From: an uncultured Candidatus Woesearchaeota archaeon
Lineage (GTDB): Archaea; Nanobdellota; Nanobdellia; Woesearchaeales; UBA10107
DNA: 64,000 nucleotides
Direction of reading: 5' to 3'
Assembly (NCBI GenBank): GCA_963835585.1
Contig: CAWIGF010000001.1
Span: forward strand, 226,281 to 290,280
Of the stretch, positions 30,709-50,491 are shown piece by piece. Position numbers and translations under genes: made by a program. The notes beneath the pieces are model-generated. The model ran no database searches. It had not been told where the DNA came from and saw only the letters and a program-made list of their open reading frames with translations. Within the stretch, counting starts at the first letter, position 1. Every line of letters starts with the position of its first letter.

Positions 30709-31965
30709 TCAACTTACGTTGCTTGGCTGGTATTCTGGTTGCTGTGGAGGCATAGATGGAGATTTTGGAGGACCCCTTCTCAAATAGAAAATCAGGAATA
30801 TATTTACAATTACAAGAACTGCTACAGCAATTATCAACAAAGAGAGAGATGATCCAAATCCTTGATTTGTCCCAGTTACCGCATTACCATTTATGTTTCC
30901 TTTCGTGACGGAAAGCGTGTCAGGATTTACCTGCATTGAGAATGTATTCTCTGAAGCCTTTCCATTGTAGTTCAATGTCGCAAACAAATTATATGCGCCC
31001 GGTTGTAGATTTGTCGTATCCCAATATCCTGTCAGCGTCGCAGATGATAGTGAAGGAACATCAACTGGTAAAGTTTGGAAATTTCCATATACATTGCTTG
31101 CAGTATCCTTTACGACAATAGTTGCAGATACACTATCAATTTGATCTGACCAATGATTGTAGACATTGACGTCCATCCTGTTAATTCTGCCAAGTATAAA
31201 CTGCGGAGAGCTGATAGACTCGATTTCAATGAATTTACCTCCCACAGTAAAAGATGAATGAAGATCTATTGTTTTGTCCCCGTATATGATTGTCGTAAGG
31301 GCGACATACTCTCCTGGAGGAACTGACAAGAGTATCGATTTTGTTTCCTTTCTCTCTATGCCCGGACCTAAAGGATCATAATCAGTATGATAAGTTGCTA
31401 TTGTATCTCCGTTTTGATTGATAATCTGAACATCCGCGGAAGGCGTTACCGTCTCCGATCCTTCATTCGTGAAAGCGTACGTGAGCTCAAGGTCATTCGT
31501 TTCCGGATCATTTGTAGTAAATGTAGCAGTCATGTACTGTCCAGGGATAGGCACATTGATTACTAATTGATGAACAATGGCCACCTCCCCAAATATAGTA
31601 GTCCCTTGAGGCTGAACAGAGGAAGAAGATTGCGCCGTGACTATTTCAACAGTATTTGCGCCAGGCTGCAACACAGCAAAGGGAATGTCAACTGAATACG
31701 AAATCGTTGCCTGGTCGTCAGTTGGACTAAGATGGATTGAACTGTTCGACAGATTTACATAACTTTGCCATTCCCCTCTTACATATATCGTCAAGTCAAG
31801 ATCTTGGTGTTCCGTGTTCATTATTGTAAAACTATAATCGTGTTTGAAGTCAGCAGTAGTATCTGCGACTATTTTTGCCGGCGTAACACCGAATGCATGC
31901 GCTGAGACAAGCGAACTAAGTAAAAATAACACCCACACAAAAATAAATCCAGTTCGCTTCATCAT
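30709..31965 (-). CDS. cell-surface protein with signal peptide and C-terminal TM anchor; paralog of 28478-29449
   Basis: Signal peptide MMKRTGFIFVWVLFLLSSLVSAHA. The C-terminal GFGSSLSLLIIAVAVLVIVNIFLIFYLRRGPP is followed by a Pro/Gln tail. The start overlaps the stop of the upstream giant-gene segment by 4 nt. Confidence 0.65.
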   Translation of the reverse strand: MMKRTGFIFVWVLFLLSSLVSAHAFGVTPAKIVADTTADFKHDYSFTIMNTEHQDLDLTIYVRGEWQSYVNLSNSSIHLSPTDDQATISYSVDIPFAVLQPGANTVEIVTAQSSSSVQPQGTTIFGEVAIVHQLVINVPIPGQYMTATFTTNDPETNDLELTYAFTNEGSETVTPSADVQIINQNGDTIATYHTDYDPLGPGIERKETKSILLSVPPGEYVALTTIIYGDKTIDLHSSFTVGGKFIEIESISSPQFILGRINRMDVNVYNHWSDQIDSVSATIVVKDTASNVYGNFQTLPVDVPSLSSATLTGYWDTTNLQPGAYNLFATLNYNGKASENTFSMQVNPDTLSVTKGNINGNAVTGTNQGFGSSLSLLIIAVAVLVIVNIFLIFYLRRGPPKSPSMPPQQPEYQPSNVS

Positions 31966-34900: not shown

Positions 34901-35291
34901 TGAATGTGAGTGCTTCTGGATAAGACTCTGTTGCTGTTATGTTGAATGTCAAATTGGTTGTTGCTGAAGTATTCGTATTTATCGAAACATTGATCTGATT
35001 CGTGATGTTCTGCAATCCTCCTGTCGCGTTAGGATAGAATGACGTCAGACTGATGTTGTTCAGGACAAGCAAGGAATTGGAGCAGACAGTACTTCCATCT
35101 TGCGTTCCATCATTTGGAGTTATGCAGGATGTCCAGTTCTGGCCTGGCATGAGTTCCTGCGAAGCCATGACGTAACTTTGATTATGATAAATATTAAGGA
35201 TTTCTTGAGGGGATAATGCTCGGTTGTATATTTGAACATTATCAATGATTCCCTGTATAATTTGACCAACCAGGACTATGATCCATTCCAA
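31962..35291 (-). CDS. C-terminal segment (1109 aa) of the giant LamG-repeat surface protein locus; out of frame with the upstream segments, so a continuation or pseudogene fragment
   Basis: It starts mid-domain (…IDNVQIYNRALSPQEILNIY) with no signal peptide. It carries LamG_3-like repeats and shares identical blocks of 150-400 nt with 36937-37330. Confidence 0.5.
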   Translation of the reverse strand: MEWIIVLVGQIIQGIIDNVQIYNRALSPQEILNIYHNQSYVMASQELMPGQNWTSCITPNDGTQDGSTVCSNSLLVLNNISLTSFYPNATGGLQNITNQINVSINTNTSATTNLTFNITATESYPEALTFSWFINNVLKFVQTLTSGFTSMFSQLFSTSGLYNVSVTVNGSNSANNQTFSFYLNLTSQPPFIVNSVVLLNSTSGNNLTTDNLTVSWNSTSYTSNLINITDWRISGTSIAVLNMPFEGGSNSTWTRDYSTYGNNGTVMNATWNSTDGYNGFGDYQFNGISSFVNASLPSAISVYTLSVWAKPTSIVVGAAIINNGTATNSWLQEGGSGAWQFDSAANGAYAATPGVWTYLAAVQNATTQLLYVNGVLVANATSTSSMSIAYIGKRGDGVYFNGSIDNVLIFNRTLSPQEIKDIYQNQSYIMDSSMLQPNQNWTSCITPNDGTQDGSTVCSNSLLVLNNISLTSFYPNATGGLQNITNQINVSISTNISASTNLTFNITATELYPEALTFNWFINNILTFVQTLTSGFTSMFSQLFSTGSQYTVSVVVNGSNPANNKTFTFFVNATRQLPFIVGNVLLNSTFGTNTSSENLTLSWNSTSPGGYTVINITDWKLNGTSIAVLNMPFEGGSNSTWTRDYSTYGNNGTVINATWNSTGGYNGFGDYQFNGNNSYIWSNTTASEVVYNLSLVAWFKTSNSGSILGFTNGLPTGGTHDKELYIQAGHITMYLYPQGGITDSTDAYNDSKWHFLVGTWNTNGTAQIWVDGSQRTSSSMSAGNTQGYAGDFTIGIASQLPTYFNGSIDNVMIFNRTLSAQEILNIYNNQSYIMDSSMLKKGQNWTACITPNDGTQDGSTVCSNNLVVLNSAPTAPVLVLPSNGNSSLTAIQPLLLWNASSDADGDTLTYNINLTSQFCANQFFTGVSATNYTTPVLSTNDKCGVYFWNVEANDGTLNSSFSSTFNFSIQVNVNINLTQNFSNFGNMIPGQTNTTVNNNPPPFIVQSLSNVLVNVSINATTLFNLSGLGNTTFMFKANTTNSSNTFNAFNTTYSNMTWTPMTSTPKSVIAYLNFPPYNNTAAIDLNVTVPNGEPPGLKVSTITVYGVES

Positions 35292-35734
35292 GATAAAAAG
35301 GATCTATAAGTTATGGAGATTGGTCCATGTCGCTGCAATACTATTGTGCATCGAGCGCTCCGTTGACAAAATGGATATATTTATGTTGTTGTCATGTGAA
35401 GGCAACATGGTACCATATGTCCTGTGTTCAGGTTCGTGCTCCCTGTGAGTTGGGCTCCTGCCGTTTATTCTCACCATAAGAGTATTTGAGGAGCCAGTAT
35501 AGAACCCGAATGAAATCTCTCCCTGCGAACCTGTTAGAGGTCCTATTGAAAAATAGCCCAGACATTGAAATTACTAACTGGCAGAGTATACCCAAGCCAT
35601 GAAAGTAATATTAAGGTTGAGTTAAGTTGAGACTCTGGCTGAATGGTATTGTAATGTATGATGAATTTACATTATGTGAAATAATATGCGCCGTGACCAT
35701 CATATCCTCACTGTCATATTCCATGTCGCATTGA
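35292..35734 (-). pseudogene. decayed copy of one adhesin repeat unit (homologous to 37590-38160) with multiple indels; no open frame
   Basis: DNA is alignable to 37590-38160 at over 90 percent identity, but several 1-3 nt indels interrupt every frame. Confidence 0.55.
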
Positions 35735-37021
35735 CTACAGTTCCATTATTGCCATATGTAGAATAGTCCTCTGTCCAAGTAGAAGTAGAGCCCCTTCAAA
35801 TGGCATGTTTAGAACTGCAATTGAAGTTCCGTTCAATCTCCAGTCTGTTATATTGATTAAATTAGATGTATACGATGTTGAGTTCCAAGATACTGTTAGA
35901 TTTTCATATGTAAAGTTTGTTCCATAAGTTGAATTTAAGATGACATTATTAACAAAAGGTGGTTGTGATGTCAGATTCAAATAAAATGTGAATGTCTTGT
36001 TGTTCGCTGGATTAGAGCCATTTACAATTACCGAAACATTATATGATCCGGATGTGCTGAACAGCTGGCTGAACATGGATGTGAATCCAGATGTTAGTGT
36101 CTGCACAAATTTCAGGATATTGTTGATGAACCAGTTGAACGTGAGCGATTCCGGATAAGATTCAGTTGCAGTTATGTTGAATGTCAAATTTGTTGCTGCT
36201 GATGTGTTTGTATTTATTGAGACATTGATTTGATTCGTGATGTTCTGCAATCCTCCTGTAGCATTAGGATAGAATGATGTCAGGTTGATTTTGTTAAGGA
36301 CGAATAATGAGTTGGAGCAGGCAGTACTTCCATCTTGGGTTCCATCATTTGGAGTTATGCATGCTGTCCAGTTCTGGCCTGGCTGCAGCATTGATGAGTC
36401 CATGATGTATGATTGGTTTTGGTATATGTTGAGGATTTCTTGCGGCGTTAATGCTACATTGTAGATCTGGACACTGTCAATCGAGCCATTGAAGAATTGA
36501 TTTATTCCAGGATCACCAGAACCAATCCATGTATTCGGACCTACGTAAGTTATAGGACCGGATGCAGCAATCGTTCCATTCTGGCGCCCGTTGAGATATA
36601 CAGTCAGTGCTGAACCGTTATATGTCATTGCGATGTAAGACCATGTTTTAATTGGAATAGCTGTATTTCCACTGAGTGATATCCATGCTGAACCATTGTA
36701 GATGGCGGCGCCGATATTCTGCGCCAGTGTATTAAACTCATCACCGAACGCCAAATAAAATGGTGCATTTTTGGAAATGACCGTCCCTATTTGTGTTGTA
36801 GTTGGATATATCCATGCAGAAAGAGTTACGGCATTTGCTAATGTAGGAACTCCCAATATAGGAATTATATAACTATTATACCCATTGAACATATATGCCC
36901 CATGTCCGTCATATCCTCCAGTCGAATTCCACGTCGCATTCATAACAGTCCCATTATTGCCGTATGTGGAATAGTCTCTTGTCCATGTGGAGTTAGAGCC
37001 GCCTTCGAAGGGCATGTTCAA
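35735..37021 (-). CDS. internal segment (428 aa) of the giant surface protein locus, LamG_3-like repeats; separated from the upstream ORF by a short frameshifted stretch
   Basis: The ORF opens on TTG inside a repeat, and homology continues seamlessly from the 3835-aa ORF. Ends in IDSVQIYNVALTPQEILNIY-type motifs. Confidence 0.5.
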   Translation of the reverse strand: MNMPFEGGSNSTWTRDYSTYGNNGTVMNATWNSTGGYDGHGAYMFNGYNSYIIPILGVPTLANAVTLSAWIYPTTTQIGTVISKNAPFYLAFGDEFNTLAQNIGAAIYNGSAWISLSGNTAIPIKTWSYIAMTYNGSALTVYLNGRQNGTIAASGPITYVGPNTWIGSGDPGINQFFNGSIDSVQIYNVALTPQEILNIYQNQSYIMDSSMLQPGQNWTACITPNDGTQDGSTACSNSLFVLNKINLTSFYPNATGGLQNITNQINVSINTNTSAATNLTFNITATESYPESLTFNWFINNILKFVQTLTSGFTSMFSQLFSTSGSYNVSVIVNGSNPANNKTFTFYLNLTSQPPFVNNVILNSTYGTNFTYENLTVSWNSTSYTSNLINITDWRLNGTSIAVLNMPFEGALLLLGQRTILHMAIMEL

Positions 37022-37330
37022 GACAGCAATCGAGGTTCCACTTCATTCTCCAGTCAGTTATGTTGATTAAATTAGATGTATATGATGTTGAGTTCCAAGA
37101 TACAGTAAGATTTTCAGTATGTGAGGTTATGTTCCCGATGTAGAATTCAACAACACTACGCTGTTCACAATAAATGGAGGTTGTGATGTCAGATTCAAAT
37201 AGAAACTGAATGTCTGGTTGTTCGCTGAATTGCTTCCATTGACTGTCACCGAGACATTATATAATCCAGATGTGCTGAAAAGCTGGCTGAACATGGATGT
37301 GAACCCAGATGTCAGTGTCTGCACAAATTT
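36937..37330. repeat. about 390-bp near-identical intragenic repeat (partner 34477-34867) spanning the frame-disrupted junction of the giant gene
   Basis: Direct comparison shows over 95 percent identity. The 37021-37127 stretch carries three 1-nt insertions relative to the 34570-34680 copy. Confidence 0.7.
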
Positions 37331-40300
37331 CGATACTTGATTCACGAACCAAGTGAATGTCAATGGCTCGCTGCTTGACTCTGATGCAGTAACATTGAAT
37401 GTTAGATTTGTGGTTGAGGAGGTGTTTAAGTTGAGCGAAACATTAATTGCACCATTCGTTGATTGAACTAGTCCTGATTGATTTGGATAGAAAGAAGTGT
37501 AATTGAGCATATTTAATGTGAAAACAGAATTTGAACAGACAGTCGATCCGTCTTGGGACATATCATTCGGTGTTATGCATGCTGTCCAGTTCTGGCCTGG
37601 CATGAGTTCCTGCGAAGCCATGACGTAACTTTGATTATGATAAATATTAAGGATTTCTTGAGGGGATAATGCTCGGTTGTATATTTGCGCATTATCTATC
37701 ATTCCTGTAAATGACCAACCAGGACTATGATATATTCCAAGATAAAAAGGATTATTAGTTATGGAGATTGGTCCATTCGCTGCAATACTATTGTCAAGCG
37801 CTCCGTTGACAAATATGGATATATTTATGTTGTTGTATGTGAAGGCAACATGGTACCATTGTCCTGTGTTCAGGTTCGCGCTCCCTGTGAGTTGGGCTCC
37901 TCCGTTTATTCTCACCATAAGAGTATTTGAGGAGCCAGTATAGAACCCGAATGAAATCTCTCCCTGCGAACCTGTTAGAGGTCCTTTGAAAAATAGCCCA
38001 GCATTGAAATTACTAACTGGCAGGTATACCCAAGCCATGCAAGTAATATTAGGTTGAGTTAAGTTGAGACTCTGGCTGAATGGTATTGTAATGTATGATG
38101 AATTTACATTATTGAAATAATATGCGCCGTGACCATCATATCCTCCTGTCATATTCCATGTCGCATTGACTACAGTTCCATTATTGCCGTATGTAGAATA
38201 GTCCTCTGTCCAAGTAGAAGTAGAGCCCCCTTCAAATGGCATGTTTAGAACTGCAATTGAAGTTCCGTTCAATCTCCAGTCTGTTATGTTGACAATGGAA
38301 ACATTATTTGAGTCGGTTGAGTTCCAATAGACAGTCAAGTTCTCAGCAGTCGTATTCGTCCCATATGTTGAATTGAGTAGTATTGATGTTGCATTCGGCG
38401 GTAAGAAGGAAGTTGCATTCAGAAGGAATGTAAATGTTGCATTATATGGCATGGAACCATTCACAACGACAGTCACATTATACAAGCCACTTTTACTGAA
38501 TAAATTGGAGAACATATCTGTAGATCCTGATGCCAATGTCTGGACGAATGTCGATACTTGGTTCACGAACCATGTGAATGTCAATGAAGGCTGACCGCTT
38601 ATTGCCGTAATATTAAAGACTAGATTAGTAAATGGAGAACTGCTTTCTATAATGCTTACATTTACCTGACCAGAAGTAAGACTCTGCAGCTGTCCCGTTG
38701 CATTTGGATAGAAATTGGTTATCTGAACGTTGTTAATATACAGATTGTTTGAACATACAGTTGTTCCGTCACTTGTTCCATCGTTTGGAGTTATGCAGGA
38801 TGTCCAGTTCTGGCCTGGAGAAAGCATTGATGAGTCTATGACATAGGATTGGTTGTTGTATATGTTCAGGATTTCTTGTGGAGACAATGCCTGATTTAAG
38901 ACAAGAACATTATCAATTGTTCCATTGAACCTATTTCCTGTGTTGTTAGCACCTATGTAGAAACTTGCGTTTGCAACTGCAGGCATCGTCGAAAGATTTA
39001 CAGATAATACTGATTTGCCCATGAAGTACGCAGTATAGTTCCAGACGCTTGTTGCTGTTCTTAACCTGGTGACGGCGACAAAATTCCACCTTTTTGCCGA
39101 AGTCACGTTGATGTTCATGAGAGTATAGGTTGTCGCATTCATGTATCCTGCAATTATCCCACACGTGCTGTTCATGAATATACTTAATTCAGGATGATAC
39201 AAAACTCTTGGATAATTCGAAACAGTATTATTGCAGTTATTTGCATAGAACCAAGCCATAATTGTGTAATTAATCGTTTCGTTGAGATTCATCGTCAATG
39301 TTGTGTTGATAAATCCAGTTCCATTAAACATGTAAGCGCCGAATCCGTTGTATCCACCTGTTGAATTCCATGTTGCATTGATTACAGTTCCATTATTTCC
39401 ATAAGTTGAGTAATCCCTTGTCCATGTCGAGTTGGAGCCACCTTCGAATGGCATGTTCAAGACAGCTATTGAAGTTCCATTCAATTTCCAGTCAGTGATG
39501 TTGATGACTTTTGCGTTAGTTCCAGGCGTGACGCTCCAATAAGTGGTTAAATTTTCAAATGATGTATTATATCCATATGTTGAATTGAGCAGTACGAAGC
39601 TTATGGAAGGAGGCAGATATGTTGCATTGACAAAGAATTTGAAAGTGACATTGTTCGCTGAATTGCTTCCATTGACTGTCACCGAGACATTATATAATCC
39701 AGATTTGCTGAAAAGCTGGCTGAACATGGATGTGAACCCAGATGCTAATGTTTGTACAAATGTTAATACTTGATTGATGAACCATCTGAATGTCAACGGC
39801 TCGTTGCTTGATTCTGAAACAGTAACATTGAATGTTAAATTATTTACTGTTGATGAGGCTCCAGTAATGCTTACATTGATTTGACCAGAGGAAATATTCT
39901 GAACCTGTCCCGTTGCATTCGGGTAGAATGATATGTATTTGATTCTGTTGAGCGTGAAGACTGTGTTGGAACACACCGTACTTCCATCTGTTGTTCCGTC
40001 ATTTGGAGTTATGCAGGCTGTCCAATTCTGGTTTGGCTGAAGTTCTTGCGAAGCCATAATATATGATTGATTATTATAAAGATTGAGGATTTCTTGGGAA
40101 CTCAATGATTTATTGAACACCAATAAGTTGTCGATTGATCCATTAAAGTAACCTCCGTTGCCTCCTCCTAATGCTGCGTAAGGTACTTGACCACCAGTCA
40201 ACGTGTTGCCAGAGTCATACCTGGAAGTATTGTATACTCCATTCACGTACCAGGATATGTTAAGATTATTGTACACAAAAGTAAGCATTACCCAGTTGGT

Positions 40301-43300
40301 TGATATTGGGCTTGTTGTAGCGAGTGGACCCGAAGGATTGTATCCACCATTCTCCAGCGTAGAGGCGTCACATATTCCTGGAGCCTCGATATTGCATCGG
40401 AACAGAACATCATCGTCCTCAAACACAACTTCGTTAGTAATTGCTGCCACCTGATTCTCTTTTATCCATGTACTTATAGTAAATCCGTTCACTATGCCAA
40501 CAACACTCGGTATCAACATATATGCATTAATTCCGTTGAACATATATGCTCCATACCCATTATATCCTCCAGTCGCATTCCAGATAGTATTATAGCCTGT
40601 TCCATTATTACCCCATGTTGAATAATCCCTTGTCCAAGTTGAGTTAGAACCTCCTTCGAATGGCATGTTCAATAAGGCAATTGAATTTCCATTCATACGC
40701 CAGTCTGTTATATTTGTTATATTACGGTTAAGAGGGCTTGAGGAATTATAATAAACAGTAAGATTTTCGTCTGTGTAGTTTGTTCCGAATGTTGAATTCA
40801 AGGTTATATTATTTGCCACTGGCAAACCACTTTTAATTACTACATTATTGCTACATACGGTTGCTCCATCTCGAATTTCGTCAGTTGGAGTTATGCAGGC
40901 TGTCCAATTCTGACCCACTTGCAGCATTGATGAGTCTATGACATAGGATTGGTTGTTGTATATGTTCAGGATTTCTTGCGGAGACAACGCTTGTCTGTAG
41001 ATTTGGACATTATCAATTTGCCCATTTAAATAATCATAGAAATCGTATCTTGTCCCTATTAGAAGAGGATAAGTGTTTGGAACTGGAGCTCCACCCTGTT
41101 GCGCAAAACTTCCTGCCGGAAGACCATTAAGATAGAATGAAACAAGACCACTACCTATTGTAACTACCGCATAATTCCATGAATTTGAAGTCATCGATGT
41201 CGGTGAACTATAGATTGAATAATCGGCACTATTAGTACCATTTTGATAGTAGAGTTGCAATGCTCCTGTTGATGGATTTGGGAAGAACTCAAAGTTTCCT
41301 GCTGAGCTCCCAGGAGAATCTTTAGCCATTATGAAATAATAAGTATTCAAATCATTCAGATAAATCCATGCGGATAGCGTGAAGTTGTCCGTCAGGTTGA
41401 GACTCTGGCTGTTTGAAACATTGATATAACCCCCGCTGAAAGAATAACCTCCGTAACCATCATATCCGCCAGTCGCACTCCATACTAAGTTGTTCAAAGT
41501 TCCGTTATTACCCCATGTTGAATAATCCCTTGTCCAAGTTGAGTTAGAACCTCCTTCGAATGGCATATTTAACGCCATTGTTGAATTGCCGCTGATTCTC
41601 CAGTCTATTATATTGGCAAGAGAATATCCAATAGGGCTTGTTGAATTCCATGAGAAAAGCAAATTCTCAAGAGTGGTGTTAAATCCATATGTTGAATTCA
41701 ACAGTGTTGAGTTTGCGTAAGGAGGTTGATAATTCGTTGCATTTACAAAGAATCTGAACGTCTGGTTTGTTGCCGGATTCGAGGCATTTACCACAACAGT
41801 TACATTATACAATCCAGGCGTACTGAACAAGTTAAAGAATGTGCTTATGAAGCTGGATGTCAATGTCTGCACAAATGTAAGGACTTGGTTCACGAACCAG
41901 CTGAATGTCAATGCCGGCTGATTTGTATTCGCAGTCATGACAAATGTAGCATTTGCTGAAGTAGCGGGCTCTACGCTGCTTGAATTGGTTTGCATATATG
42001 AAATATTCTGGGTTTGACCTGTCTTATTCGGATAGAAACTAATGAGTTGTATGTTGTTGATGTAAATATTATTGGAACAGACAGTATTTCCTTCAAGAGT
42101 GCCGTCATCGGGAGTTACACATGCAGTCCAGTTATCCCCTGGACTGAGCTCCGTGTTCGCCAAAATATATGGCTTATTATTGTACAGATTGTAGATTTCC
42201 TGCGGAGACAATGCTCGGTTGTAGATTTGGACATCGGAAATTGAACCGTTGAAACCATATCCATATCCAGGACCTCCATATCTGCCTATGTCCAACATAC
42301 CTGGAGTTCCTGATGTTATCATACCACTAGAATCATAATTTCCATTCACATATATAGTTAAAATATTATTACTATTTGTAGTGACTGCGACAAAATACCA
42401 CTGAGTTTTATTAATCGGAGTTTGCCCATATATATAAGTAATAGATCCTGCACCTCCAACGACATTTAATTGAGTGTCCCCAGTATTGCCACCATAAAGG
42501 CTTACCCAATAATTATTTCCACCAAAATCGAGCATATATTGATCCGAAGTGGGATCGGTACTTTGTGGGTAAAACCAGAATGTTCTGGTATTAACACTGC
42601 CCATCACCAAATTACTAACGTTGATGTATTCGTCAACATCAGCAGCGTTCCCTGAACCATCAAAATAATATGCTCCGAATCCATTGTATCCTCCAGTTGA
42701 ATTCCATATGGCATTATTGACGGTTCCATTGTTGCCGTATGTAGAATAGTCCTCTGTCCATGTTGAGTTAGAGCCTACTTCGAATGGCATGTTGAGGATT
42801 GCAATGCTTGTTCCGTTGTTTCTCCAGTCTGTGATGTTCTGGACAGGAAGTTTAGCCAGATCAGTCTCATTGTAGTAAGCAGTGATGTTCTCGAAAGTTG
42901 TATTTGTTCTCTTACTGGAGTTGATGAAAACAGAATTCACAATAGGATTTACGTCAGTCACGTTAAGATTGAATGTGAATGAATTGTTCGTATATGAATT
43001 ATTAACTACAACGGTAATGTTGTACTGGCCAGTCGCAGCGAATAACTGAGAAAACATGCTCGTCAATCCTGATGTCAAGGTCTGGACTAATGCAAGTACT
43101 TGGTTCACGAACCAGCTGAACGTGAGAGGGCCGCTTATGGAATAGTCTATGTAATTTCCTGTAGCGTTGAATGTCAGATTTGCTACAGATACATTCTCCG
43201 CTATCGAAATGCTAGTCGTCGTATAGGGAATATTCTGAGTCTGCATAGAACTATTCGGATATATGGCAGAAATGTAAGGTGCATCTAGTATCAATATTTT

Positions 43301-46300
43301 ATTCGAACAAAGCGTAGGACCATCGACCTTGTCATCGTTTGGAGTCACACATGCAGTCCAGTTGTCACTTGCATTAAGCTCCTTGTTTGACATTATATAA
43401 CTTTGACTATCGTTGATGTTCAAAATTTCTTGAGGAGATAATGCTCTGTTGTAGATTTGGACATTGTCGATTGTACCATTAAAGTAATTACCCAGTCCGA
43501 TGCTACCGATATATAGATTATCAGTACCACTCGGCAATGATCCACTAGCTCCTATGGTTTCCGTATTATTGATTCCATCAATATATAATGTTGCGTCTCC
43601 ATTATTATATACTGCTACAAAATAATGCCAGGTGTTATATGAAGGAGCATATGTACTAAGTGTGTCATAAGAGACTGCATTTGTCCATCTGAAGAACACG
43701 AATCCTTCCTCTGCACCATAAGTTGGTCCAAGCAACTGCGCATAGTAAGATGTAGGATATTTGTCTATGAACACAGGATAATCCGTATTTGGTGCAGGAT
43801 ATTTAGCCCACCAAGAAACGGACATTCGTGAAGCGCCATCAAAAACACCTTTGTTAGACATGTTGATATAACTAATTGCCCCGTCAAATTGGTATGCTCC
43901 CTGCCCATTATACCCGCAACTAGAACACCATGTTGCGTTCACAACCGTTCCATTATTGCCGTATGTGGAGTAATCCCTCGTCCAATTGGAAGTAGAACCA
44001 CCTTCAAATGGCATATTCAGGACAGCTATTGAGATATTGTTTAATCTCCAGTCTGTGATGTTGACAATAGGGTCCATATCAGGATCTGATAAATTATAAT
44101 ACACTGTAAGATTCTCTGTTGTGAGATTCGTGCCGAACGTGGAATTTATGAAAACGGATGTTATGTTAGGAGGGGTGTTGTTTGTGATAAAGTATGTGGA
44201 CCAGTGCGTTACCTTGAAAGTTACGAAGATATTATTAGGATTTCCAGAGCATGCGGGATTGAAGCATGAAGTTCCTTCGCAAGTCGTATAATTTTGAAGC
44301 CTTGCCAATGTCACGTTTTTTGTGAAGTTGTTGAGCATCTTTATTGAATAATTCTGGCAACTGAAATCCTTGCTGTTCAGGGTCAGAAAGTTTGTTGAAG
44401 TTATATTCAAAGGATTCTCCGCGCTTGAGTTTAATGAAGCTATTGAATCGTTCAGATAGATGTTTTGTATGCTTGTAAAGTTAATAGGGCCGTGGAAAGA
44501 AAGAGTATTGTTCCTTTCGGAAAGGTTCAGATAGTCATTATTTCCCCCGTTTATTTTAACGTATGAATCTAACGTGTTGTTTGACCAGAAATTATTGAAG
44601 ATGACATTACCAGTTGTCCCAGCAAGAAAAATAATTCCATACGTGTTATTAAATAAACTATTGTTCCCTATAGAGGAGCCAGTGGCCCCACCATCTAAAG
44701 CAATTCCTCCAGTTTGGTTGTACATTATATTGTTAAAAATAATCGCAGTAGTGCCGCCAACTAGCTCAATTCCATAAGGGCTATTACTTGCAATCGTATT
44801 GAATGTTGCATTAACGACAGCTCCAGCAGATGTATAAATGCCATCTTGCATATTAGACACTATAGTATTGTTGAACAGTGGAATTTCACCGCTGCCACCT
44901 GAAAAGTATACCCCATATTCCGAGCCATTCGCGATTGTATTTTGTGTGATTATATTACCAGGATAACCTCCTAGTCCTGCTTCAAGATCAAATCCTTCAA
45001 CAGAAACATTGTTTATTACATTGTTTGAAATAATTGTATAAACTGCAGGAGGGTGTATGTCTATCCCTATACCTTGAGAGAAAGAATTGGTTATTTTGTT
45101 ACTTGTGATTGTTGTCTGGTTAGCTGCCACGTAAATGCTCGTGTTGCATGAAAAGAACGTATTGTTTGCGACTGTAAGGTTAATTGTTGGATAGACTATA
45201 TTCAGACAATCAACTGAGTTGCTGGAAAATGTATTGTTGAGAATATTATCATTGAAGCTTGGATTGGCAGTTCCACCACCACCGAAATATATTCCAGTTG
45301 AATCGTTGATAAAATTATTTTGAAGGATATACGAGCTGTTTACCGAATAGAACTGCATGGCCGTGCTTGCATTTTCTATAGTGCAGCCAATTATGGTTAT
45401 ATTGTTGCTGTTGGAAGAAGACAGATAAGTAAATCCTGCTCCGTTGATTATTGTGTTGTAACAGTTGATATTTACATTGCTTGTGTTATATATCATTGAT
45501 GTGTTCAGGTAATATGTTCCAGGGCATAATGTGATGTTTCCTGTTAGATTAAGTCCGTTCGTTGGTACAGTACATGTTAATACTTGGAATGTGAATGTCT
45601 GGTTGTTTGCCGGATTCGAACCATTTACTACAGCAGTAACGTTGCTCAGACCTATAAGGCTTGATATTGCCTCTGTAAATGAGCTTGTAAATGCCGATGT
45701 CAAAGTCTGGACAAATGTCGATATTTGGTTCACGAACCATGTGAATGTCAACGGCTCGTAGCTTGATTCTGTAGCGGTTACATTGAACGTCATGCTTCCG
45801 GAACTGTTGTAGCTCGCGTTAATGAACACAGTATTTACTCCTGGTGTCGTATTCTGCGTCTGACCCGTAGTGGCATTCGGAGCATAAGATATTATCTGTA
45901 TGTGGTTGAGCATTAAGACTTGGTTGGATATGTTAGTCACTCCGTTAACACCATTTTCTGGAGTTACCGCGACAGTCCAGTTTTCTCCCGGTCTTGTGTT
46001 GTTTGCAATAATGACATTCCTGTTGGATGCGTTGAACATCAAAATTTGCTGAGGGGTGAATGTACGGTTATATATTCCTACGAAGTCCATCTGTCCTATG
46101 AATCCCATTCCAATCAATATAGGATTTCCACTTGAGATATTTACCCAAGATATTGTAGAAGTATTGACTAACACTCCGTTGACATAAAGCTCCATTCTAT
46201 TTCCATCAAATATGTTTACAAATACATCTGACCAATTATTCAAGGATATTGCAGTGCTTGAATTAGCTTTATACAAAAATGTTGATGCAACTGATGATGC

Positions 46301-48634
46301 ATTCATTGTGAAATAAGGCCTTAAACTTCCATCAAAAGCAATTATCCAACCAAGAGTACCTGCCGAAGTAGCTTTTTGCATAATTGTTGTAGCTACAGAA
46401 GCAGTAGGAGCAACCACAACTTCAATAGATACATTTCCTGTAAGATTTAAATAATTCTTATCCGGAACTGATATTGTTCCAGCGCTGGTGAAATTGTAAA
46501 CACAAGGCTGACCTCCCAATCCTGATTTGAGAGATACAGCTCCAGAGACTGATGCAGTATCATTGAAGGTGGAATAATCAGTCGCGTTACTGCCTGAAGT
46601 TGGGAGATATGTCATTGCCAAATTAAGGAAATCCATGGATTGATTATTTATACGCCAATCAGTAACATTATCAATTGTCGAGCCGCCTACGTTGAAGTAA
46701 ACAGTAAGATTCTCGTCAGTATAATTAGTCCCAAGTGTTGAGTTCAAGAATATACTAAGAACAGAAATTGGTGTTGGTAATGTCGTGAAATTATAGATTC
46801 CAGACGTGTTGCATGCTCCTGCAGGAGTACATGATGTCACATTATAGAAATAAATAGTGTTGTTCACCAGTCCTGACACAGAAACATTGTGCACAAGTCC
46901 ATTGTCATTCACGGATATGTTAAATCTCAGCAGATTTGAGCTTTGGTTTCCGTATAACAACGTTGTGTTTGAATTGAGTGAGGTTGTCCAGTTTATCATG
47001 ACGCTCTGGTTTGTTATGCTGTAATTCACAACTCCGGAAATTCCAGGAACCATTGCAGTTCCTGATATGTTGACGTTATCAAGATAGCATCCCCTTCCTA
47101 CGGTAGTGCTAGGAGTGCAATTGAAAGCCAAACGGAAACTTGGATTGTTGCTTGAGTTGCCTGCAGTAAGGAGATAATTATAATTAGTGTAATTAGGAAT
47201 ATTTGTCGTGTTCATCAACAATCCCCAGGCAGTTCCATTCCACCAATTTGCTCCGAAAAATGAGACCACTCCTGTCGTGTTGGCATAGAACGAAATGTTA
47301 ATGTTCTGATAGTAAGCAGTGCTCATATTCAGGTAGAGATATGCTATAGTAGTTCCTGATGAATTGTCCCTTGCCTCATATGTTCCTGCGTAAGGATCTG
47401 TTTTGTTTACTTCCCAACCACTTGATATTGTCCAGGCATTTGACGAGAATAATCCTGTCTCGAAACCATCGAAGAAAGTTCCATTGTTCGCTGTCAGATT
47501 ATTTGGGGCATCATGGATGTAGTCGAATTGTATGAATGGATTCGCATCCGATTCGTTAGGGTCTTGGATCTTGAAGTCAAAAGTATCTTCTGGTTGGTCA
47601 AGGCCGCTAATGCTTACATATTGCTGAGATCCTGAAACAATATCGCTCGTTCCGACCTTCTGATCAGTTCCTGCAACGTATACGTCGAAGTATGCTGAAG
47701 TGTTCGAGCGGGCAACGAAATCAATTACATTGTCATTTGTAAGATTCATCTCATATGTGACCCTGACAAACTCATTTTGGTAGATTGGATCGCTCCAATT
47801 GTTGTCGATTGCCTCTATCTCTGGATATATATCAGAAATGAACGTGTAATTCTCATCCAAATGCTGTGCGTCTATAGCTGCAATAATCTCAGCAAAAGCA
47901 GGGTCATCTTGGGTAAGGGTGAAATTATATTCCTGCCCGGGAATTATCTTCTCGAAAAATTCCCATGTCCCATTGCAAATTCTATTGTCAAAATCCCATT
48001 CCCTGCATTTGTACAATTGGTTGCCAACTGCTATTGCTGTTAATGTTGCATTTGTAAAGTTGACCTGTGTAGGATCAACCGCATATACTTGCTTCCAATC
48101 GGTGTCTTTGTTTAGTCTGGCAATTGAATTGGGAGTGTCATCAACCCTGAGCTTAGAAAGCGTACCTTTATCGACACCATGGAACTCTATACCATGGATT
48201 GGTGTTTTTTTAAGTGTTACAAAAGCAGTTACTTCTGTGTTGTTTCCTATTGTCTCGTTCGAGAAACTAACATTCGCTGAAATCGTGTTGTTATTTGCAT
48301 CAACGACAAAAAATCCTGTTTGAGCTGGCTCCTTTACAAACATGAAAAACCCAAATAAAATAATAATCGCAACCAGACTGACTTTTGCAAAATTAAGATG
48401 AGTTTCCATCTCTATTCTCTTTTTCAGGGAAACTGCCTTTTCCAGATAGCTATTTATTTCATCTTTGAATTCGTGCTCGGATTTACTCTTCAGGATATTT
48501 TGTTTCAGCAGACTATGCTCGAGCTTGCTTATTTTTTTGTTGCTAAGAAGGGAATCTATATAGTCAAGTTTCTTTTCCATGTCCAAGCAAGCTCTTATGC
48601 GTGCATTTATTTCAGCGATATATTCCTTATCCAC
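37127..48634 (-). CDS. giant cell-surface adhesin-like protein (3835 aa): N-terminal cytoplasmic coiled-coil, single TM, parallel beta-helix region, then about 12 or more LamG_3 (concanavalin-A-like) plus Ig-like repeat modules
   Basis: TM helix LVAIIILFGFFMFV at about residue 85. PbH1-like repeats (NNFINDSTGIYFGGGG..., NNTFSSN...). The recurring module ITDWRLNGTSIAVLNMPFEGGSNSTWTRDYSTYGNNGTV...IDNVQIYNRALSPQEILNIY matches the Laminin_G_3 C-terminal signature. Extreme N-x-S/T sequon density. Confidence 0.8.
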   Translation of the reverse strand: MDKEYIAEINARIRACLDMEKKLDYIDSLLSNKKISKLEHSLLKQNILKSKSEHEFKDEINSYLEKAVSLKKRIEMETHLNFAKVSLVAIIILFGFFMFVKEPAQTGFFVVDANNNTISANVSFSNETIGNNTEVTAFVTLKKTPIHGIEFHGVDKGTLSKLRVDDTPNSIARLNKDTDWKQVYAVDPTQVNFTNATLTAIAVGNQLYKCREWDFDNRICNGTWEFFEKIIPGQEYNFTLTQDDPAFAEIIAAIDAQHLDENYTFISDIYPEIEAIDNNWSDPIYQNEFVRVTYEMNLTNDNVIDFVARSNTSAYFDVYVAGTDQKVGTSDIVSGSQQYVSISGLDQPEDTFDFKIQDPNESDANPFIQFDYIHDAPNNLTANNGTFFDGFETGLFSSNAWTISSGWEVNKTDPYAGTYEARDNSSGTTIAYLYLNMSTAYYQNINISFYANTTGVVSFFGANWWNGTAWGLLMNTTNIPNYTNYNYLLTAGNSSNNPSFRLAFNCTPSTTVGRGCYLDNVNISGTAMVPGISGVVNYSITNQSVMINWTTSLNSNTTLLYGNQSSNLLRFNISVNDNGLVHNVSVSGLVNNTIYFYNVTSCTPAGACNTSGIYNFTTLPTPISVLSIFLNSTLGTNYTDENLTVYFNVGGSTIDNVTDWRINNQSMDFLNLAMTYLPTSGSNATDYSTFNDTASVSGAVSLKSGLGGQPCVYNFTSAGTISVPDKNYLNLTGNVSIEVVVAPTASVATTIMQKATSAGTLGWIIAFDGSLRPYFTMNASSVASTFLYKANSSTAISLNNWSDVFVNIFDGNRMELYVNGVLVNTSTISWVNISSGNPILIGMGFIGQMDFVGIYNRTFTPQQILMFNASNRNVIIANNTRPGENWTVAVTPENGVNGVTNISNQVLMLNHIQIISYAPNATTGQTQNTTPGVNTVFINASYNSSGSMTFNVTATESSYEPLTFTWFVNQISTFVQTLTSAFTSSFTEAISSLIGLSNVTAVVNGSNPANNQTFTFQVLTCTVPTNGLNLTGNITLCPGTYYLNTSMIYNTSNVNINCYNTIINGAGFTYLSSSNSNNITIIGCTIENASTAMQFYSVNSSYILQNNFINDSTGIYFGGGGTANPSFNDNILNNTFSSNSVDCLNIVYPTINLTVANNTFFSCNTSIYVAANQTTITSNKITNSFSQGIGIDIHPPAVYTIISNNVINNVSVEGFDLEAGLGGYPGNIITQNTIANGSEYGVYFSGGSGEIPLFNNTIVSNMQDGIYTSAGAVVNATFNTIASNSPYGIELVGGTTAIIFNNIMYNQTGGIALDGGATGSSIGNNSLFNNTYGIIFLAGTTGNVIFNNFWSNNTLDSYVKINGGNNDYLNLSERNNTLSFHGPINFTSIQNIYLNDSIASLNSSAENPLNITSTNFLTLNSKDFSCQNYSIKMLNNFTKNVTLARLQNYTTCEGTSCFNPACSGNPNNIFVTFKVTHWSTYFITNNTPPNITSVFINSTFGTNLTTENLTVYYNLSDPDMDPIVNITDWRLNNISIAVLNMPFEGGSTSNWTRDYSTYGNNGTVVNATWCSSCGYNGQGAYQFDGAISYINMSNKGVFDGASRMSVSWWAKYPAPNTDYPVFIDKYPTSYYAQLLGPTYGAEEGFVFFRWTNAVSYDTLSTYAPSYNTWHYFVAVYNNGDATLYIDGINNTETIGASGSLPSGTDNLYIGSIGLGNYFNGTIDNVQIYNRALSPQEILNINDSQSYIMSNKELNASDNWTACVTPNDDKVDGPTLCSNKILILDAPYISAIYPNSSMQTQNIPYTTTSISIAENVSVANLTFNATGNYIDYSISGPLTFSWFVNQVLALVQTLTSGLTSMFSQLFAATGQYNITVVVNNSYTNNSFTFNLNVTDVNPIVNSVFINSSKRTNTTFENITAYYNETDLAKLPVQNITDWRNNGTSIAILNMPFEVGSNSTWTEDYSTYGNNGTVNNAIWNSTGGYNGFGAYYFDGSGNAADVDEYINVSNLVMGSVNTRTFWFYPQSTDPTSDQYMLDFGGNNYWVSLYGGNTGDTQLNVVGGAGSITYIYGQTPINKTQWYFVAVTTNSNNILTIYVNGNYDSSGMITSGTPGMLDIGRYGGPGYGYGFNGSISDVQIYNRALSPQEIYNLYNNKPYILANTELSPGDNWTACVTPDDGTLEGNTVCSNNIYINNIQLISFYPNKTGQTQNISYMQTNSSSVEPATSANATFVMTANTNQPALTFSWFVNQVLTFVQTLTSSFISTFFNLFSTPGLYNVTVVVNASNPATNQTFRFFVNATNYQPPYANSTLLNSTYGFNTTLENLLFSWNSTSPIGYSLANIIDWRISGNSTMALNMPFEGGSNSTWTRDYSTWGNNGTLNNLVWSATGGYDGYGGYSFSGGYINVSNSQSLNLTDNFTLSAWIYLNDLNTYYFIMAKDSPGSSAGNFEFFPNPSTGALQLYYQNGTNSADYSIYSSPTSMTSNSWNYAVVTIGSGLVSFYLNGLPAGSFAQQGGAPVPNTYPLLIGTRYDFYDYLNGQIDNVQIYRQALSPQEILNIYNNQSYVIDSSMLQVGQNWTACITPTDEIRDGATVCSNNVVIKSGLPVANNITLNSTFGTNYTDENLTVYYNSSSPLNRNITNITDWRMNGNSIALLNMPFEGGSNSTWTRDYSTWGNNGTGYNTIWNATGGYNGYGAYMFNGINAYMLIPSVVGIVNGFTISTWIKENQVAAITNEVVFEDDDVLFRCNIEAPGICDASTLENGGYNPSGPLATTSPISTNWVMLTFVYNNLNISWYVNGVYNTSRYDSGNTLTGGQVPYAALGGGNGGYFNGSIDNLLVFNKSLSSQEILNLYNNQSYIMASQELQPNQNWTACITPNDGTTDGSTVCSNTVFTLNRIKYISFYPNATGQVQNISSGQINVSITGASSTVNNLTFNVTVSESSNEPLTFRWFINQVLTFVQTLASGFTSMFSQLFSKSGLYNVSVTVNGSNSANNVTFKFFVNATYLPPSISFVLLNSTYGYNTSFENLTTYWSVTPGTNAKVINITDWKLNGTSIAVLNMPFEGGSNSTWTRDYSTYGNNGTVINATWNSTGGYNGFGAYMFNGTGFINTTLTMNLNETINYTIMAWFYANNCNNTVSNYPRVLYHPELSIFMNSTCGIIAGYMNATTYTLMNINVTSAKRWNFVAVTRLRTATSVWNYTAYFMGKSVLSVNLSTMPAVANASFYIGANNTGNRFNGTIDNVLVLNQALSPQEILNIYNNQSYVIDSSMLSPGQNWTSCITPNDGTSDGTTVCSNNLYINNVQITNFYPNATGQLQSLTSGQVNVSIIESSSPFTNLVFNITAISGQPSLTFTWFVNQVSTFVQTLASGSTDMFSNLFSKSGLYNVTVVVNGSMPYNATFTFLLNATSFLPPNATSILLNSTYGTNTTAENLTVYWNSTDSNNVSIVNITDWRLNGTSIAVLNMPFEGGSTSTWTEDYSTYGNNGTVVNATWNMTGGYDGHGAYYFNNVNSSYITIPFSQSLNLTQPNITCMAWVYLPVSNFNAGLFFKGPLTGSQGEISFGFYTGSSNTLMVRINGGAQLTGSANLNTGQWYHVAFTYNNINISIFVNGALDNSIAANGPISITNNPFYLGIYHSPGWSFTGMIDNAQIYNRALSPQEILNIYHNQSYVMASQELMPGQNWTACITPNDMSQDGSTVCSNSVFTLNMLNYTSFYPNQSGLVQSTNGAINVSLNLNTSSTTNLTFNVTASESSSEPLTFTWFVNQVSKFVQTLTSGFTSMFSQLFSTSGLYNVSVTVNGSNSANNQTFSFYLNLTSQPPFIVNSVVLLNSTSGT

Positions 48635-48902
48635 CTGCTATTGCCTCTCTTTTTTTCTTTGCCCTGTGATAGCACGTCCATATAGTCCTGTCATCCCTGT
48701 GCAGCAATTCCGCTATTTCATGATACGATAATCCGTAATTTTCTTTCAGAAATTCGACAATTGCTTCCAGGGAAGCAAGAGTCCTGTCTGCGAACACAGA
48801 AATGGGAACAGTGTATTTTTCACTTAATTTTTGAGACAGAACAAAAGCGGTATCAGATGTATTAGTCCTCGATTTAGAATGTTTCTCCACGTCTAACACC
48901 AA
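48627..48902 (-). CDS. small helix-turn-helix DNA-binding regulator (sigma-70 region-4-like HTH)
   Basis: 91 aa; the C-terminal GLSYHEIAELLHRDDRTIWTCYHRAKKK is a classic HTH. Its stop overlaps the giant gene start by 8 nt. Confidence 0.6.
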   Translation of the reverse strand: MVLDVEKHSKSRTNTSDTAFVLSQKLSEKYTVPISVFADRTLASLEAIVEFLKENYGLSYHEIAELLHRDDRTIWTCYHRAKKKREAIAGG

Positions 48903-48906
48903 TTAC

Positions 48907-48990
48907 ACTTACAATGTAAGTTTTTCATATATAAATCTTTTTAAAATAACTTACAATGTAAGTAAGATTTTAAATACTTACAATGTAGGT
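48907..48990. promoter_or_regulatory. three copies of the palindrome ACTTACAaTGTAAGT flanking an A/T-rich TATA-like element upstream of the HTH gene (putative operator array)
   Basis: Copies at 48907-48921, 48949-48963 and 48976-48990 (the third has one mismatch). A TATATAAA sequence at about 48926-48934 lies about 25-30 nt upstream of the ATG at 48902. Confidence 0.55.
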
Positions 48991-49033
48991 ATAAAAGAAT
49001 GTAAACAAAAATGAGAATTTAGTTGGAATAATT

Positions 49034-50491
49034 TTAAGGTTTTCCTTGTCTGTTATAGACGAGAATATAAGGAGTAGTTCCCTCGTTTGCTGCGACGAAT
49101 GCTCTATCTCCATCGTCGATAGCAACATCCGCATATGTGTATGTTGAAGTGGATCCGAACGTAGAGACTGGCGGCAAAAGACTATTCACCAACTGACTTA
49201 GGTCGAATTCTGTGACATCTGTTGTTGTAGCTCCATCAAGTCTGTTGTTAGTAGGATCGTATGACATACCAACAAAAGTGTAAGGACAAGAAATAGTAAC
49301 AGGATTCGTCAAATCAGGATTCGTAACGATAAGGGTATTGTTTGTCAATTTTATAAAATTTTTTAATGATGATGTTGCGATAGTCTCTATGTTTGAACCC
49401 AAATCCGAATTATATGGTTGAGTGTTGCTTGAAGTGAATACTCTAACTACCGAACCATCGCCAGTTACTATATTGCTGTTTCCATCAACGGCAAGTCCTG
49501 TCGGACCTCCATTTGTAAATGTGCCGATATTCGAGGGAGTTGCTTGACTATTATTGACGAAAGAATAAATTGTACCATTATCAGCAACATATTCGTAATT
49601 ACCACCAGAATTTACTGCTATTTTCATTGCAGAAAAAAACGGCGGATTTCTGAGAGCGGTATAGTTGAATGTAGAAGGAGGTGTAAATAACGCAACTTCA
49701 TATTTCCCTTTGTCCAATCCAAATACACTACTACTTCCGGATGCAACCGAGACTATAGGTGAAGAAAATAGTTGTGTTGAAAACCCATTTGTCGTTCCCT
49801 CAGGGCCTACACGAGGTACTGGTGTAAATGTTGGCGTAAATGTAGATGTTGGCGAATTTGTATTGGTCGGAGTGTTTGTTTCCGTAGGTGTTGGCGAATT
49901 TGTTGATGTGTTTGTTGGTGTTGATGTGTTCGTGGAAGTTGGCGTGTAAGTGAAAGTCAGTGAATTGGTAGGCGTTTCTGTGTTAGTTGATGTACTCGTT
50001 GGGGTGGACGTATTTGTACCAGTGAATGTTAGTGTGTTCGTTGGCGTATTTACTGGTGTTAGTGTGTTTGTACCAGTGGATGTGCTTGACGGCGTTGGAG
50101 TGTAAGGAACTGTAGTTAATGTGCTGGTCGGAGTGAAAGATGAGGTGTTCGTTGGAGTGTTTACAGGTGTTAGTGTGTCAGTATCAGTGAATGTTCCGGT
50201 ATTTGATGGTGTTGGAGTGTAAGGAACCGTAGTCAATGTGCTGGTCGGAGTGAAAGATGAGGTGTTTGTTGGAGTGTAAGGAACTGCTGACGTATTCGTT
50301 GGAGTGGCTGTATCCGTGTCAGTAAGCGTTATTGTACTTGTGTATACAGGTGTTGAAGTTTTTCCAATTGATGGTGGTGGCAAGGGCCCTGTAATAAACT
50401 GCCTTGAGCAGCCGCCAATAATGGCTTCCAGGCCAAGTCCGAGAATAATTCCACCTATTTGTATTTTCTTCCTAATGTTCATTTTCATCAC
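49034..50491 (-). CDS. secreted Thr/Pro-rich low-complexity surface protein (likely glycosylated) with C-terminal beta-rich domain
   Basis: Signal peptide, then about 200 aa of TPTNTS/TPS repeats that include a duplicated block of about 40 aa (NTSSFTPTSTLTTVPYTPTPS). The C-terminal 250 aa are not repetitive. Confidence 0.6.
   Translation of the reverse strand: MMKMNIRKKIQIGGIILGLGLEAIIGGCSRQFITGPLPPPSIGKTSTPVYTSTITLTDTDTATPTNTSAVPYTPTNTSSFTPTSTLTTVPYTPTPSNTGTFTDTDTLTPVNTPTNTSSFTPTSTLTTVPYTPTPSSTSTGTNTLTPVNTPTNTLTFTGTNTSTPTSTSTNTETPTNSLTFTYTPTSTNTSTPTNTSTNSPTPTETNTPTNTNSPTSTFTPTFTPVPRVGPEGTTNGFSTQLFSSPIVSVASGSSSVFGLDKGKYEVALFTPPSTFNYTALRNPPFFSAMKIAVNSGGNYEYVADNGTIYSFVNNSQATPSNIGTFTNGGPTGLAVDGNSNIVTGDGSVVRVFTSSNTQPYNSDLGSNIETIATSSLKNFIKLTNNTLIVTNPDLTNPVTISCPYTFVGMSYDPTNNRLDGATTTDVTEFDLSQLVNSLLPPVSTFGSTSTYTYADVAIDDGDRAFVAANEGTTPYILVYNRQGKP

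Follow-up and report, generated by a model that had tools for sequence, protein, structure and literature searches.

Much of the diversity of the archaea belongs to the DPANN archaea, which are thought to be attached to host cells. For this attachment, the prime candidates are their giant surface proteins, and to our knowledge nothing is known of how these are controlled. The question takes a concrete form in a stretch of 64,000 nucleotides (here, the window) of contig CAWIGF010000001.1 from an uncultured “Candidatus Woesearchaeota” archaeon, in which a small gene encoding a helix-turn-helix (HTH) protein overlaps the start of a giant surface-protein gene and is itself preceded by three palindromes. 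Is the small protein a regulator dedicated to its giant neighbor, and are the palindromes its operators? An earlier reading of the window (the original prediction) had proposed a dimeric autoregulator of the giant operon, and this proposal is supported by the conservation of the locus, by the geometry of the promoter, by tandemly duplicated homologues, and by a co-variation between the modules of the proteins and the symmetry of the sites. From these comparisons, we consider it likely that the HTH protein is an autoregulated dimer that controls the coupled giant operon through dyad-symmetric operators, represses from the proximal one (O1), and acts on other promoters in trans.

A small HTH gene and the palindromes in its promoter

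The HTH gene lies on the minus strand at positions 48627 to 48902, where the original prediction had placed it, and encodes a protein of 91 amino acids when read from a TTG codon. GTG codons at 48899 and 48890 are alternative in-frame starts, and the public gene call (P0001) is the 90-amino-acid form beginning at GTG 48899. Between the gene and the stop codon of the upstream gene (49034) lie 131 bp, which hold three copies of a 15-bp palindrome at the predicted positions 48907, 48949, and 48976. The putative operators O1 (proximal; 48907 to 48921) and O2 (48949 to 48963) are exact copies of ACTTACAWTGTAAGT, and the distal O3 (48976 to 48990; ACCTACATTGTAAGT, gene strand) departs from the palindrome by one mismatch, with AGGT in place of AAGT. 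The centers of O1 and O2 are 42 bp, or four helical turns, apart, and O3 is centered 27 bp from O2. No other match with two or fewer mismatches was found in the window, and since about 1e-4 occurrences of an exact 15-mer would be expected in the 128 kb of both strands, a chance origin of the palindromes is excluded. An RNA hairpin is implausible as well (a 7-bp stem with a 1-nt loop), and an Rfam scan of positions 48000 to 49600 at E values up to 1 returned no RNA family.

The palindromes are arranged around a candidate archaeal core promoter. A TATA box, TTTATATA (48928 to 48935, minus strand), lies 6 nt upstream of O1 and adjoins a purine-rich stretch, TAAAAAGA on the gene strand (about 48943 to 48936, minus strand), which, judged by archaeal promoter architecture, would serve as the transcription factor B recognition element (BRE). 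O2 ends 5 nt upstream of this stretch, directly upstream of BRE and TATA as had been predicted. The predicted place of the first copy, between the TATA box and the start codon, also proved correct, whereas the start codon named, an ATG, did not: the codon is TTG or GTG, and the ATG inside TTTATATATG is out of frame with the HTH open reading frame (ORF). When the usual archaeal TATA-to-start distance is applied, with TATA centered near −26/−27, transcription is predicted to start at 48905 to 48903 (minus strand). O1, lying between TATA and this predicted start, would then span about −17 to −3, and the predicted mRNA has no leader or one of at most about 15 nt. An oligo-T tract, TTTTTGTTT (49003 to 49011, minus strand), which follows the stop codon of the upstream gene (49034 to 49036), is likely an archaeal terminator that would isolate the HTH promoter. 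The product of the upstream gene (49034 to 50491) has no Pfam match, and a look-up in public assemblies gave no match for it.

Conservation of the palindromes in related loci

Comparison was made with 79 species-level loci, which together with the window amount to 1.19 Mb. The motif ACTTACNNNGTAAGT, with at most one mismatch, occurs 135 times in this set, and 125 of these are found in the 700 nt preceding an HTH module; shuffled versions of the 1.19 Mb give 1 to 10 sites. The palindrome is thus not a genome-wide repeat unrelated to promoters, a finding that the original prediction had named as one that would count against it. In an alignment of promoters from 11 species, only O2, BRE/TATA, O1, and the distal site are conserved. 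Here, the consensus site extends to a 19-bp palindrome, ATACTTACAWTGTAAGTAT, and the column block GAAAAC/AAAAGA is conserved at the BRE; the TATA box is invariant in promoter alignment A3. In 22 of 30 loci, the proximal site is preceded by a TATA 8-mer (at most one mismatch) that ends 3 to 10 nt before it; of 73 distal sites, 49 lack such an 8-mer. In many relatives, the start codon follows the proximal site by 1 to 17 nt. The spacing of 42 ± 1 bp between O1 and O2 recurs (L002, L003, L006, L016, L017, L018, L009, and others) and is the only constrained one among the site spacings; in the closest relatives, the distal site is found at a variable distance of 19 to 37 bp from O2. A general rule that all sites are helically phased was rejected, with spacings that peak at 36 to 37, 42, 45 to 46, and 56 to 57 bp.

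The same geometry bears on the sign of the regulation. Archaeal activator sites usually lie upstream of the BRE, which is where O2 sits, and the sign could accordingly be positive or dual: O2 and O3 would recruit or stabilize TATA-binding protein (TBP) and transcription factor B (TFB), and O1 would act at high regulator concentrations only. Such a role would agree with the conserved distance of O2 from O1, with arrays of 3 to 9 sites that reach far upstream in some loci, and with the positive autoregulation of bacterial extracytoplasmic function (ECF) sigma operons, whose sigma factors are relatives of the HTH protein in fold. However, conservation is strongest at the proximal site, which is squeezed in between TATA and the start codon; several loci (L023, L028, L030, and L044) carry this site alone, and in known archaeal systems the proximal position blocks the recruitment of RNA polymerase. 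We regard an activator or dual regulator as rather unlikely and favor repression from O1.

A DPANN family of sigma-4-like modules

The HTH protein contains a conserved module of about 55 amino acids (residues ~31 to 88; 48639 to 48812, minus strand) with the pattern IPxxIFxDRxLxxLE...SYHEIAELLxRDDRTIWTCYHRAKKKR. Fifteen of its residues are invariant in alignment A1 (P33, R40, L45, E46, H61, E62, A64, R69, D71, R72, T73, W75, T76, R80, and K84), and all of these features are those of a family of DPANN sigma-4-like modules. The recognition helix of the family is RDDRTIWTxYxRAKKK; in the window it reads RDDRTIWTCYHRAKKK, and it is near-invariant across loci. We found 64 database homologues, of which all that carry a name come from DPANN archaea (Nanoarchaeota/Woesearchaeota), and 208 stretches encoding relatives in species-representative genomes. 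A search of 1.84 billion cluster representatives with the family profile retrieved 2,174 family representatives at 50% identity (1,945 at E values up to 1e-10), in which one, two, three, or four modules are present per protein. The window protein is therefore probably a stand-alone member of a large family specific to DPANN archaea of the Woesearchaeota and Nanoarchaeota. No relative was found in a search of viral contigs, and a mobile or viral origin is not indicated. Many public metagenome-assembled genomes with a locus of the DPANN type (L002, L005, L006, L008, and others) are titled “uncultured Methanosarcinales archaeon”; the records so titled include a 774-kb complete chromosome (OZ246410.1), and the title looks like a taxonomic mislabel.

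The original prediction had described the protein as resembling region 4 of sigma-70, and Pfam Sigma70_r4_2 (PF08281) does match it, at 26.8 bits against a gathering score of 25.7. An AlphaFold2 model built with 26 homologues (predicted local distance difference test score, 80; core, >88) is confident over residues ~30 to 88, and its top Foldseek matches in the PDB are region 4 domains of ECF sigma factors (SigR, sigmaE, SigD, and SigW), some of them in complex with −35 DNA or with anti-sigma factors. All NCBIfam sigma models align to the protein solely through the C-terminal ~40 residues of the models, and far below their cutoffs. GerE (PF00196) is not among the Pfam families reported for the protein at E values up to 10, and neither Pfam nor NCBIfam gave a match to sigma region 2, which binds core RNA polymerase and recognizes the −10 element. 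Because region 4 alone is present and region 2 was not found, the 91-amino-acid protein is a region-4-only HTH protein and not a sigma factor. The archaeal host, the BRE/TATA promoter, and the flanking palindromes likewise argue against the use of a bacterial-type RNA polymerase at −35/−10 promoters.

Module composition and the symmetry of the sites

The recognition helix hardly varies, even where a locus has no sites, and co-variation among canonical modules could therefore not be used to link the proteins to the palindromes. The number and kind of modules, on the other hand, vary together with the form of the sites. Some homologues have two canonical modules; such tandem modules would amount to a covalently joined dimer, in keeping with the reading of each half-site by one module. 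Other homologues, of about 170 amino acids, consist of a divergent module (helix RNEIALAVTYRNAKKK) followed by a canonical one, and the sites upstream of these are asymmetric, ACTTACAWARTATRT, with one canonical half-site kept and with 44 of 45 half-sites in one orientation, toward the gene. Proteins with a single module or two canonical modules are preceded by 69 symmetric sites and 13 lone half-sites, whereas the divergent-canonical proteins are preceded by no symmetric site and 45 lone half-sites (Fisher p = 6e-23, computed on sites that are not phylogenetically independent). This co-variation, from which we predict that the HTH modules read the palindromic sites, and the tandemly duplicated homologues are the grounds on which the idea of a dimeric regulator is supported.

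Two identical palindromes that flank a core promoter, here O1 and O2, could also be recombination sites at which the short enclosed BRE/TATA segment is inverted or deleted, giving phase variation of the giant gene; surface-protein genes of bacteria are often phase-variable. However, BRE/TATA points the same way in every species aligned, a segment of 27 bp leaves very little length for synapsis, no recombinase gene adjoins the locus, and the asymmetric, unidirectional sites of the divergent-module class do not fit inversion. We consider phase variation extremely improbable, and the palindromes are better read as operators.

Separately, some loci with two-module proteins show strict long-period arrays of sites (69, 69, and 69 bp in L019 at ~9680 to 9900; also L027 and L031), a pattern that suggests tandem duplication of a larger promoter-containing unit and not independent sites.

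The giant surface protein and its coupling to the HTH gene

The giant surface-protein ORF (37127 to 48634, minus strand) encodes 3,835 amino acids, with seven Laminin_G_3 (LamG_3) repeats and an ectodomain rich in NxS/T. It begins at a GTG codon (48634 to 48632), a start supported by the alignment of homologues from residue 2, and the stop codon of the HTH gene (TAA, 48629 to 48627) lies inside this start. The two genes thus share the 8-nt overlap GTGGATAA (48627 to 48634, minus strand) of the original prediction, by which their translation would be coupled. GAGAGG, a candidate Shine-Dalgarno-like sequence, is located 9 nt upstream of the GTG, within the 3′ end of the HTH gene (48644 to 48649, minus strand). 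The giant protein starts with a cytoplasmic helical domain (residues 1 to 81; 48392 to 48634, minus strand) that contains the SHOCT-like motif LDYIDSLLSNKKISKLEHSLLKQNIL, followed by a single transmembrane (TM) helix assigned by hydropathy (residues ~82 to 105; 48320 to 48391, minus strand). The intact ORF is 11.5 kb long and stops in the middle of a repeat at 37127; LamG repeats continue for about 5 kb through at least three frameshifts or stops to position 31962 (31962 to 37126, minus strand), in two ORFs (35735 to 37021 and 31962 to 35291) that both match LamG_3, the former being 54 to 57% identical to the preceding LamG repeats. The interruptions are either real decay or assembly indels in the repeats. 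A gene of 12 to 17 kb, as previously estimated, is thus a fair description when the repeat continuation is included, although the gene is broken in this assembly.

Among the relatives, the pairing of an HTH gene with a giant gene is conserved, as the original prediction required: in most of the 79 species-level loci, the HTH gene overlaps a large LamG-type membrane-protein ORF by 1 to 14 nt, with overlaps of −1, −4, −8, and −14 nt recurring, and the giant ORFs often run off the 10-kb flank at >3,300 amino acids. The encoded proteins share a topology of a charged, helical cytoplasmic N-domain (30 to 115 amino acids), one TM helix, TG[FY], and an ectodomain with LamG_3 repeats, with beta-helix, subtilase, or disaggregatase domains in some. 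The presence of sites is associated with that of a large downstream gene, which is present/absent at 25/4 HTH genes with sites versus 6/16 without (p = 3e-5). HTH genes without sites are found in L008, L010 to L015, L024 to L026, L041, L052, L053, L058, and L066, most of which have no giant gene downstream; in L011, L013, and L014, the HTH gene is followed by the gene for a protein of ~389 amino acids with a TM helix near residue 157.

In alignment A2, the N-domains share a helical domain of about 70 amino acids with the SHOCT-like motif G.IS..EY...L.GK[TS]..EW..Y. A Pfam scan of 19 N-domains at E values up to 10 gave just weak SHOCT/DUF1707 matches and coiled-coil noise and no anti-sigma family (e.g., zf-HC2, RseA_N, or RsdA), and a profile search of the PDB with the N-domain returned nothing relevant. 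The N-domain looks SHOCT-like or coiled-coil, and its identity as an anti-sigma domain finds no Pfam or PDB sequence support.

A gene for a 418-amino-acid protein (30709 to 31965, minus strand) overlaps the last LamG ORF by 4 nt. The protein has a signal-peptide-like N terminus and a C-terminal TM helix, and its sole domain match is a sub-threshold one to the host-binding domain of WxL-interacting proteins. Elsewhere in the window, ARAGORN reports a 90-nt tRNA-Ser (10285 to 10374, minus strand) with the unusual anticodon ACT at position 32, which may be an intron-containing or miscalled archaeal tRNA.

Wider occurrence of the motif and regulator-giant fusions

When metagenomes of the Joint Genome Institute were searched for pairs of palindromes without reference to proteins, 47 loci were obtained. 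An HTH gene lies just downstream in 23 of them (3 with slightly variant helices), and 7 are at contig edges. Most of the others are directly upstream of large N-anchored membrane proteins of the type described above, with no HTH gene nearby, and a few precede genes for TBP, transcription factor S (TFS), or a nucleotidyltransferase-type protein. It is suggested from this distribution that the motif marks a regulon that is centered on large surface proteins and extends beyond the regulator's own gene. Its reach may include basal transcription genes: the arrays in L122 (468 to 545), L085 (474 to 589), and L084/L103/L106 are placed upstream of TBP, beside a TFS-like gene, and upstream of a conserved 350-amino-acid protein that has no Pfam match. 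In L079 (4314 to 4695) and L075 (4675 to 4709), arrays occupy a gap of about 1.1 kb far from any HTH gene and precede an operon for a RIO kinase, a KH-domain protein, and topoisomerase VI B and A; the L079 array consists of seven copies with a 53-bp period.

In some relatives, the regulator and the giant protein are a single polypeptide. Of the best 150 family representatives, 16 are large proteins (655 to 5,919 amino acids) with two to four modules at the C terminus. Four of these (P0073, P0095, P0096, and P0067) are LamG-type giants ending in four HTH modules, and in all four the tail is preceded by …YFCL…YST…WTIRI, a short hydrophobic stretch, and a run of at least four K/R residues. Ranked by hydrophobicity among the 13-mers of its protein, this stretch comes first, or second to the N-terminal TM helix. 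Runs of at least four K/R are rare in these proteins, occurring once in P0095 and P0067 and twice in P0073 and P0096. P0095 and P0096 also carry the N-terminal cytoplasmic domain and TM helix; therefore, both of their ends would be cytoplasmic and the giant part outside. The fused genes (for example, in L128, 3001 to 12681, and L129, 3001 to 20760), assessed by counts of half-sites, have arrays of four variant sites, the last of which abuts their own ATG, with TATA about 7 nt upstream. The giant gene of the window has no C-terminal anchor or HTH tail, and by comparison of the architectures the window appears to be a split version of the giant-HTH fusion.

These data also bear on the possibility that the palindrome is bound by another factor and that the HTH protein acts elsewhere, for example, as a partner of the giant's cytoplasmic domain. 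Half of the arrays found by motif alone have no adjoining HTH gene, and many HTH genes have no sites. On the other side, the co-variation of module composition with site symmetry is categorical, variant helices in the fused proteins are accompanied by variant sites in the promoters of their genes, and the sites are strongly concentrated upstream of HTH genes. A different binding factor is hence very improbable, and the HTH modules are the preferred readers of the sites.

A tentative extension is that giant proteins and sigma-4-like modules form one signaling unit, in which the state of the surface sets how much regulator reaches the operators. In some lineages, the four modules would be the cytoplasmic C-terminal tail of the giant protein; elsewhere, a free module translated from the same leaderless mRNA may dock on the giant's cytoplasmic part. 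Insertion, host contact, or cleavage of the surface protein would then set the supply of regulator. The giant protein may control regulator availability because the gene layout resembles that of ECF sigma and anti-sigma factors and because fusions exist, whereas the N-domain, with no similarity to anti-sigma domains, weighs against it. If this is true, organisms that depend on attachment to hosts would have a pathway from contact to transcription comparable to ECF sigma/anti-sigma, ToxR, or Notch signaling.

A predicted feedback circuit

The circuit that we favor would operate as follows. The HTH promoter would drive a leaderless or near-leaderless operon, with the regulator first and the giant N-anchored LamG protein coupled to it. 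A dimer of the HTH protein would bind (AT)ACTTACAWTGTAAGT(AT), with one module per ACTTACA half-site. When bound at O1, it would block RNA polymerase from joining the TBP/TFB complex, and occupancy of O2 and O3 would add cooperativity. The resulting negative feedback would cap initiation on a long and costly gene of 11.5 to 17 kb, and with the regulator made first from the mRNA, the feedback could set in before the long transcript is finished. The reach of the family and its operator would extend in trans to further genes for large surface proteins and to a few other promoters. In this scheme, DNA binding by the HTH protein, the stoichiometry of the dimer, the transcription start, and repression rather than activation are inferred.

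Several observations weigh against this scheme. (i) The whole case is comparative and computational, and many of the loci come from metagenome bins; the nonindependence of the site counts (see above) applies to it throughout. (ii) About half of the relatives' HTH genes lack a site upstream although their recognition helix is identical, and autoregulation is therefore not universal in the family. (iii) The Pfam score of the HTH protein is just 1 bit above the threshold; the small size of the domain keeps the Foldseek E values weak (0.04 and above); and a profile of the HTH alignment gave no match to PDB sequences at E values up to 1. (iv) The HTH protein has no obvious ligand-binding domain and hence no evident input signal. 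(v) The position of O2, as discussed above, would also suit an activator.

Comparison with known systems

Literature searches returned no description of the operator, of the coupling to giant genes, or of the fusions, in agreement with the original prediction that this is not a described module. The nearest account is that of Castelle et al. 2021 (PMC8204110), who reported that “sigma-70” genes are prevalent in Woesearchaeota, found no anti-sigma factor, and called the mechanism unclear. Compared by description, their fam00359 “sigma-70” proteins are probably the same as the HTH family of the window; in PMC8204110, however, no domain truncation, operator, promoter geometry, link to giant genes, or fusion is described. 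Our analysis thus assigns a concrete predicted role to genes that had been reported as unexplained (PMC8204110). It predicts the DNA target of the family to the base pair, a target seen in giant-gene promoters across many species; it reveals natural fusions of regulator and giant protein; and, with the operator sequence, regulons could be predicted directly from thousands of uncultured genomes. The best-supported interpretation of the locus is an operator-binding autoregulator that is built from a sigma-4-only archaeal module and dedicated to giant surface proteins.

Bacterial ECF sigma operons resemble the locus in three respects: the fold of sigma region 4, the overlap with a gene for a single-pass membrane protein (helical cytoplasmic N-domain and large outside domain), and a promoter of the regulator that carries its own target sites, which is predicted here. 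Unlike ECF sigma factors, the window protein lacks region 2 and would neither bind core RNA polymerase nor recognize a −10 element; its host uses BRE/TATA, and the site is dyad symmetric and located between TATA and the start, not at −35. The N-domain of the giant protein is without sequence similarity to anti-sigma partners, with which it shares topology alone.

Stand-alone regulators of the GerE/LuxR type have a small tetrahelical HTH related to sigma region 4 and bind inverted repeats as dimers. The window protein is likewise a small HTH-only protein with inverted-repeat targets, but it differs in its archaeal host, its distinct signature RDDRTIWT, and the lack of a Pfam GerE match. ToxR and CadC are membrane-tethered one-component regulators with an OmpR-type winged helix. 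Their combination of a DNA-binding region, a membrane anchor, and an extracytoplasmic domain is found in P0073, P0095, and P0096 and not in the proteins of the window, where the regulator is a separate protein. In the fused relatives, however, the HTH is sigma-4-like, C-terminal, and present in four copies, and the outside domain comprises thousands of residues.

Among archaeal repressors, MDR1, Phr, and LrpA bind between TATA and the start site. The mechanism inferred here is similar, with an operator over the zone downstream of TATA where RNA polymerase is recruited; MDR1, Phr, and LrpA belong to other families with sensor or ligand domains, whereas the window protein is an HTH module alone. 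The closest archaeal precedent for the promoter architecture is Ss-LrpB of Sulfolobus solfataricus, which is autoregulated via three 15-bp palindromic boxes in its own control region (PMC1802622). Ss-LrpB differs in having an Lrp/AsnC fold with a ligand-binding RAM domain, a different consensus (TTGCAAAATTTGCAA), and no coupling to a surface-protein gene, while one site of the window lies between TATA and the start. In both cases, the control region of the regulator itself holds several similar palindromes of about 15 bp, three of them within 131 bp in the window.

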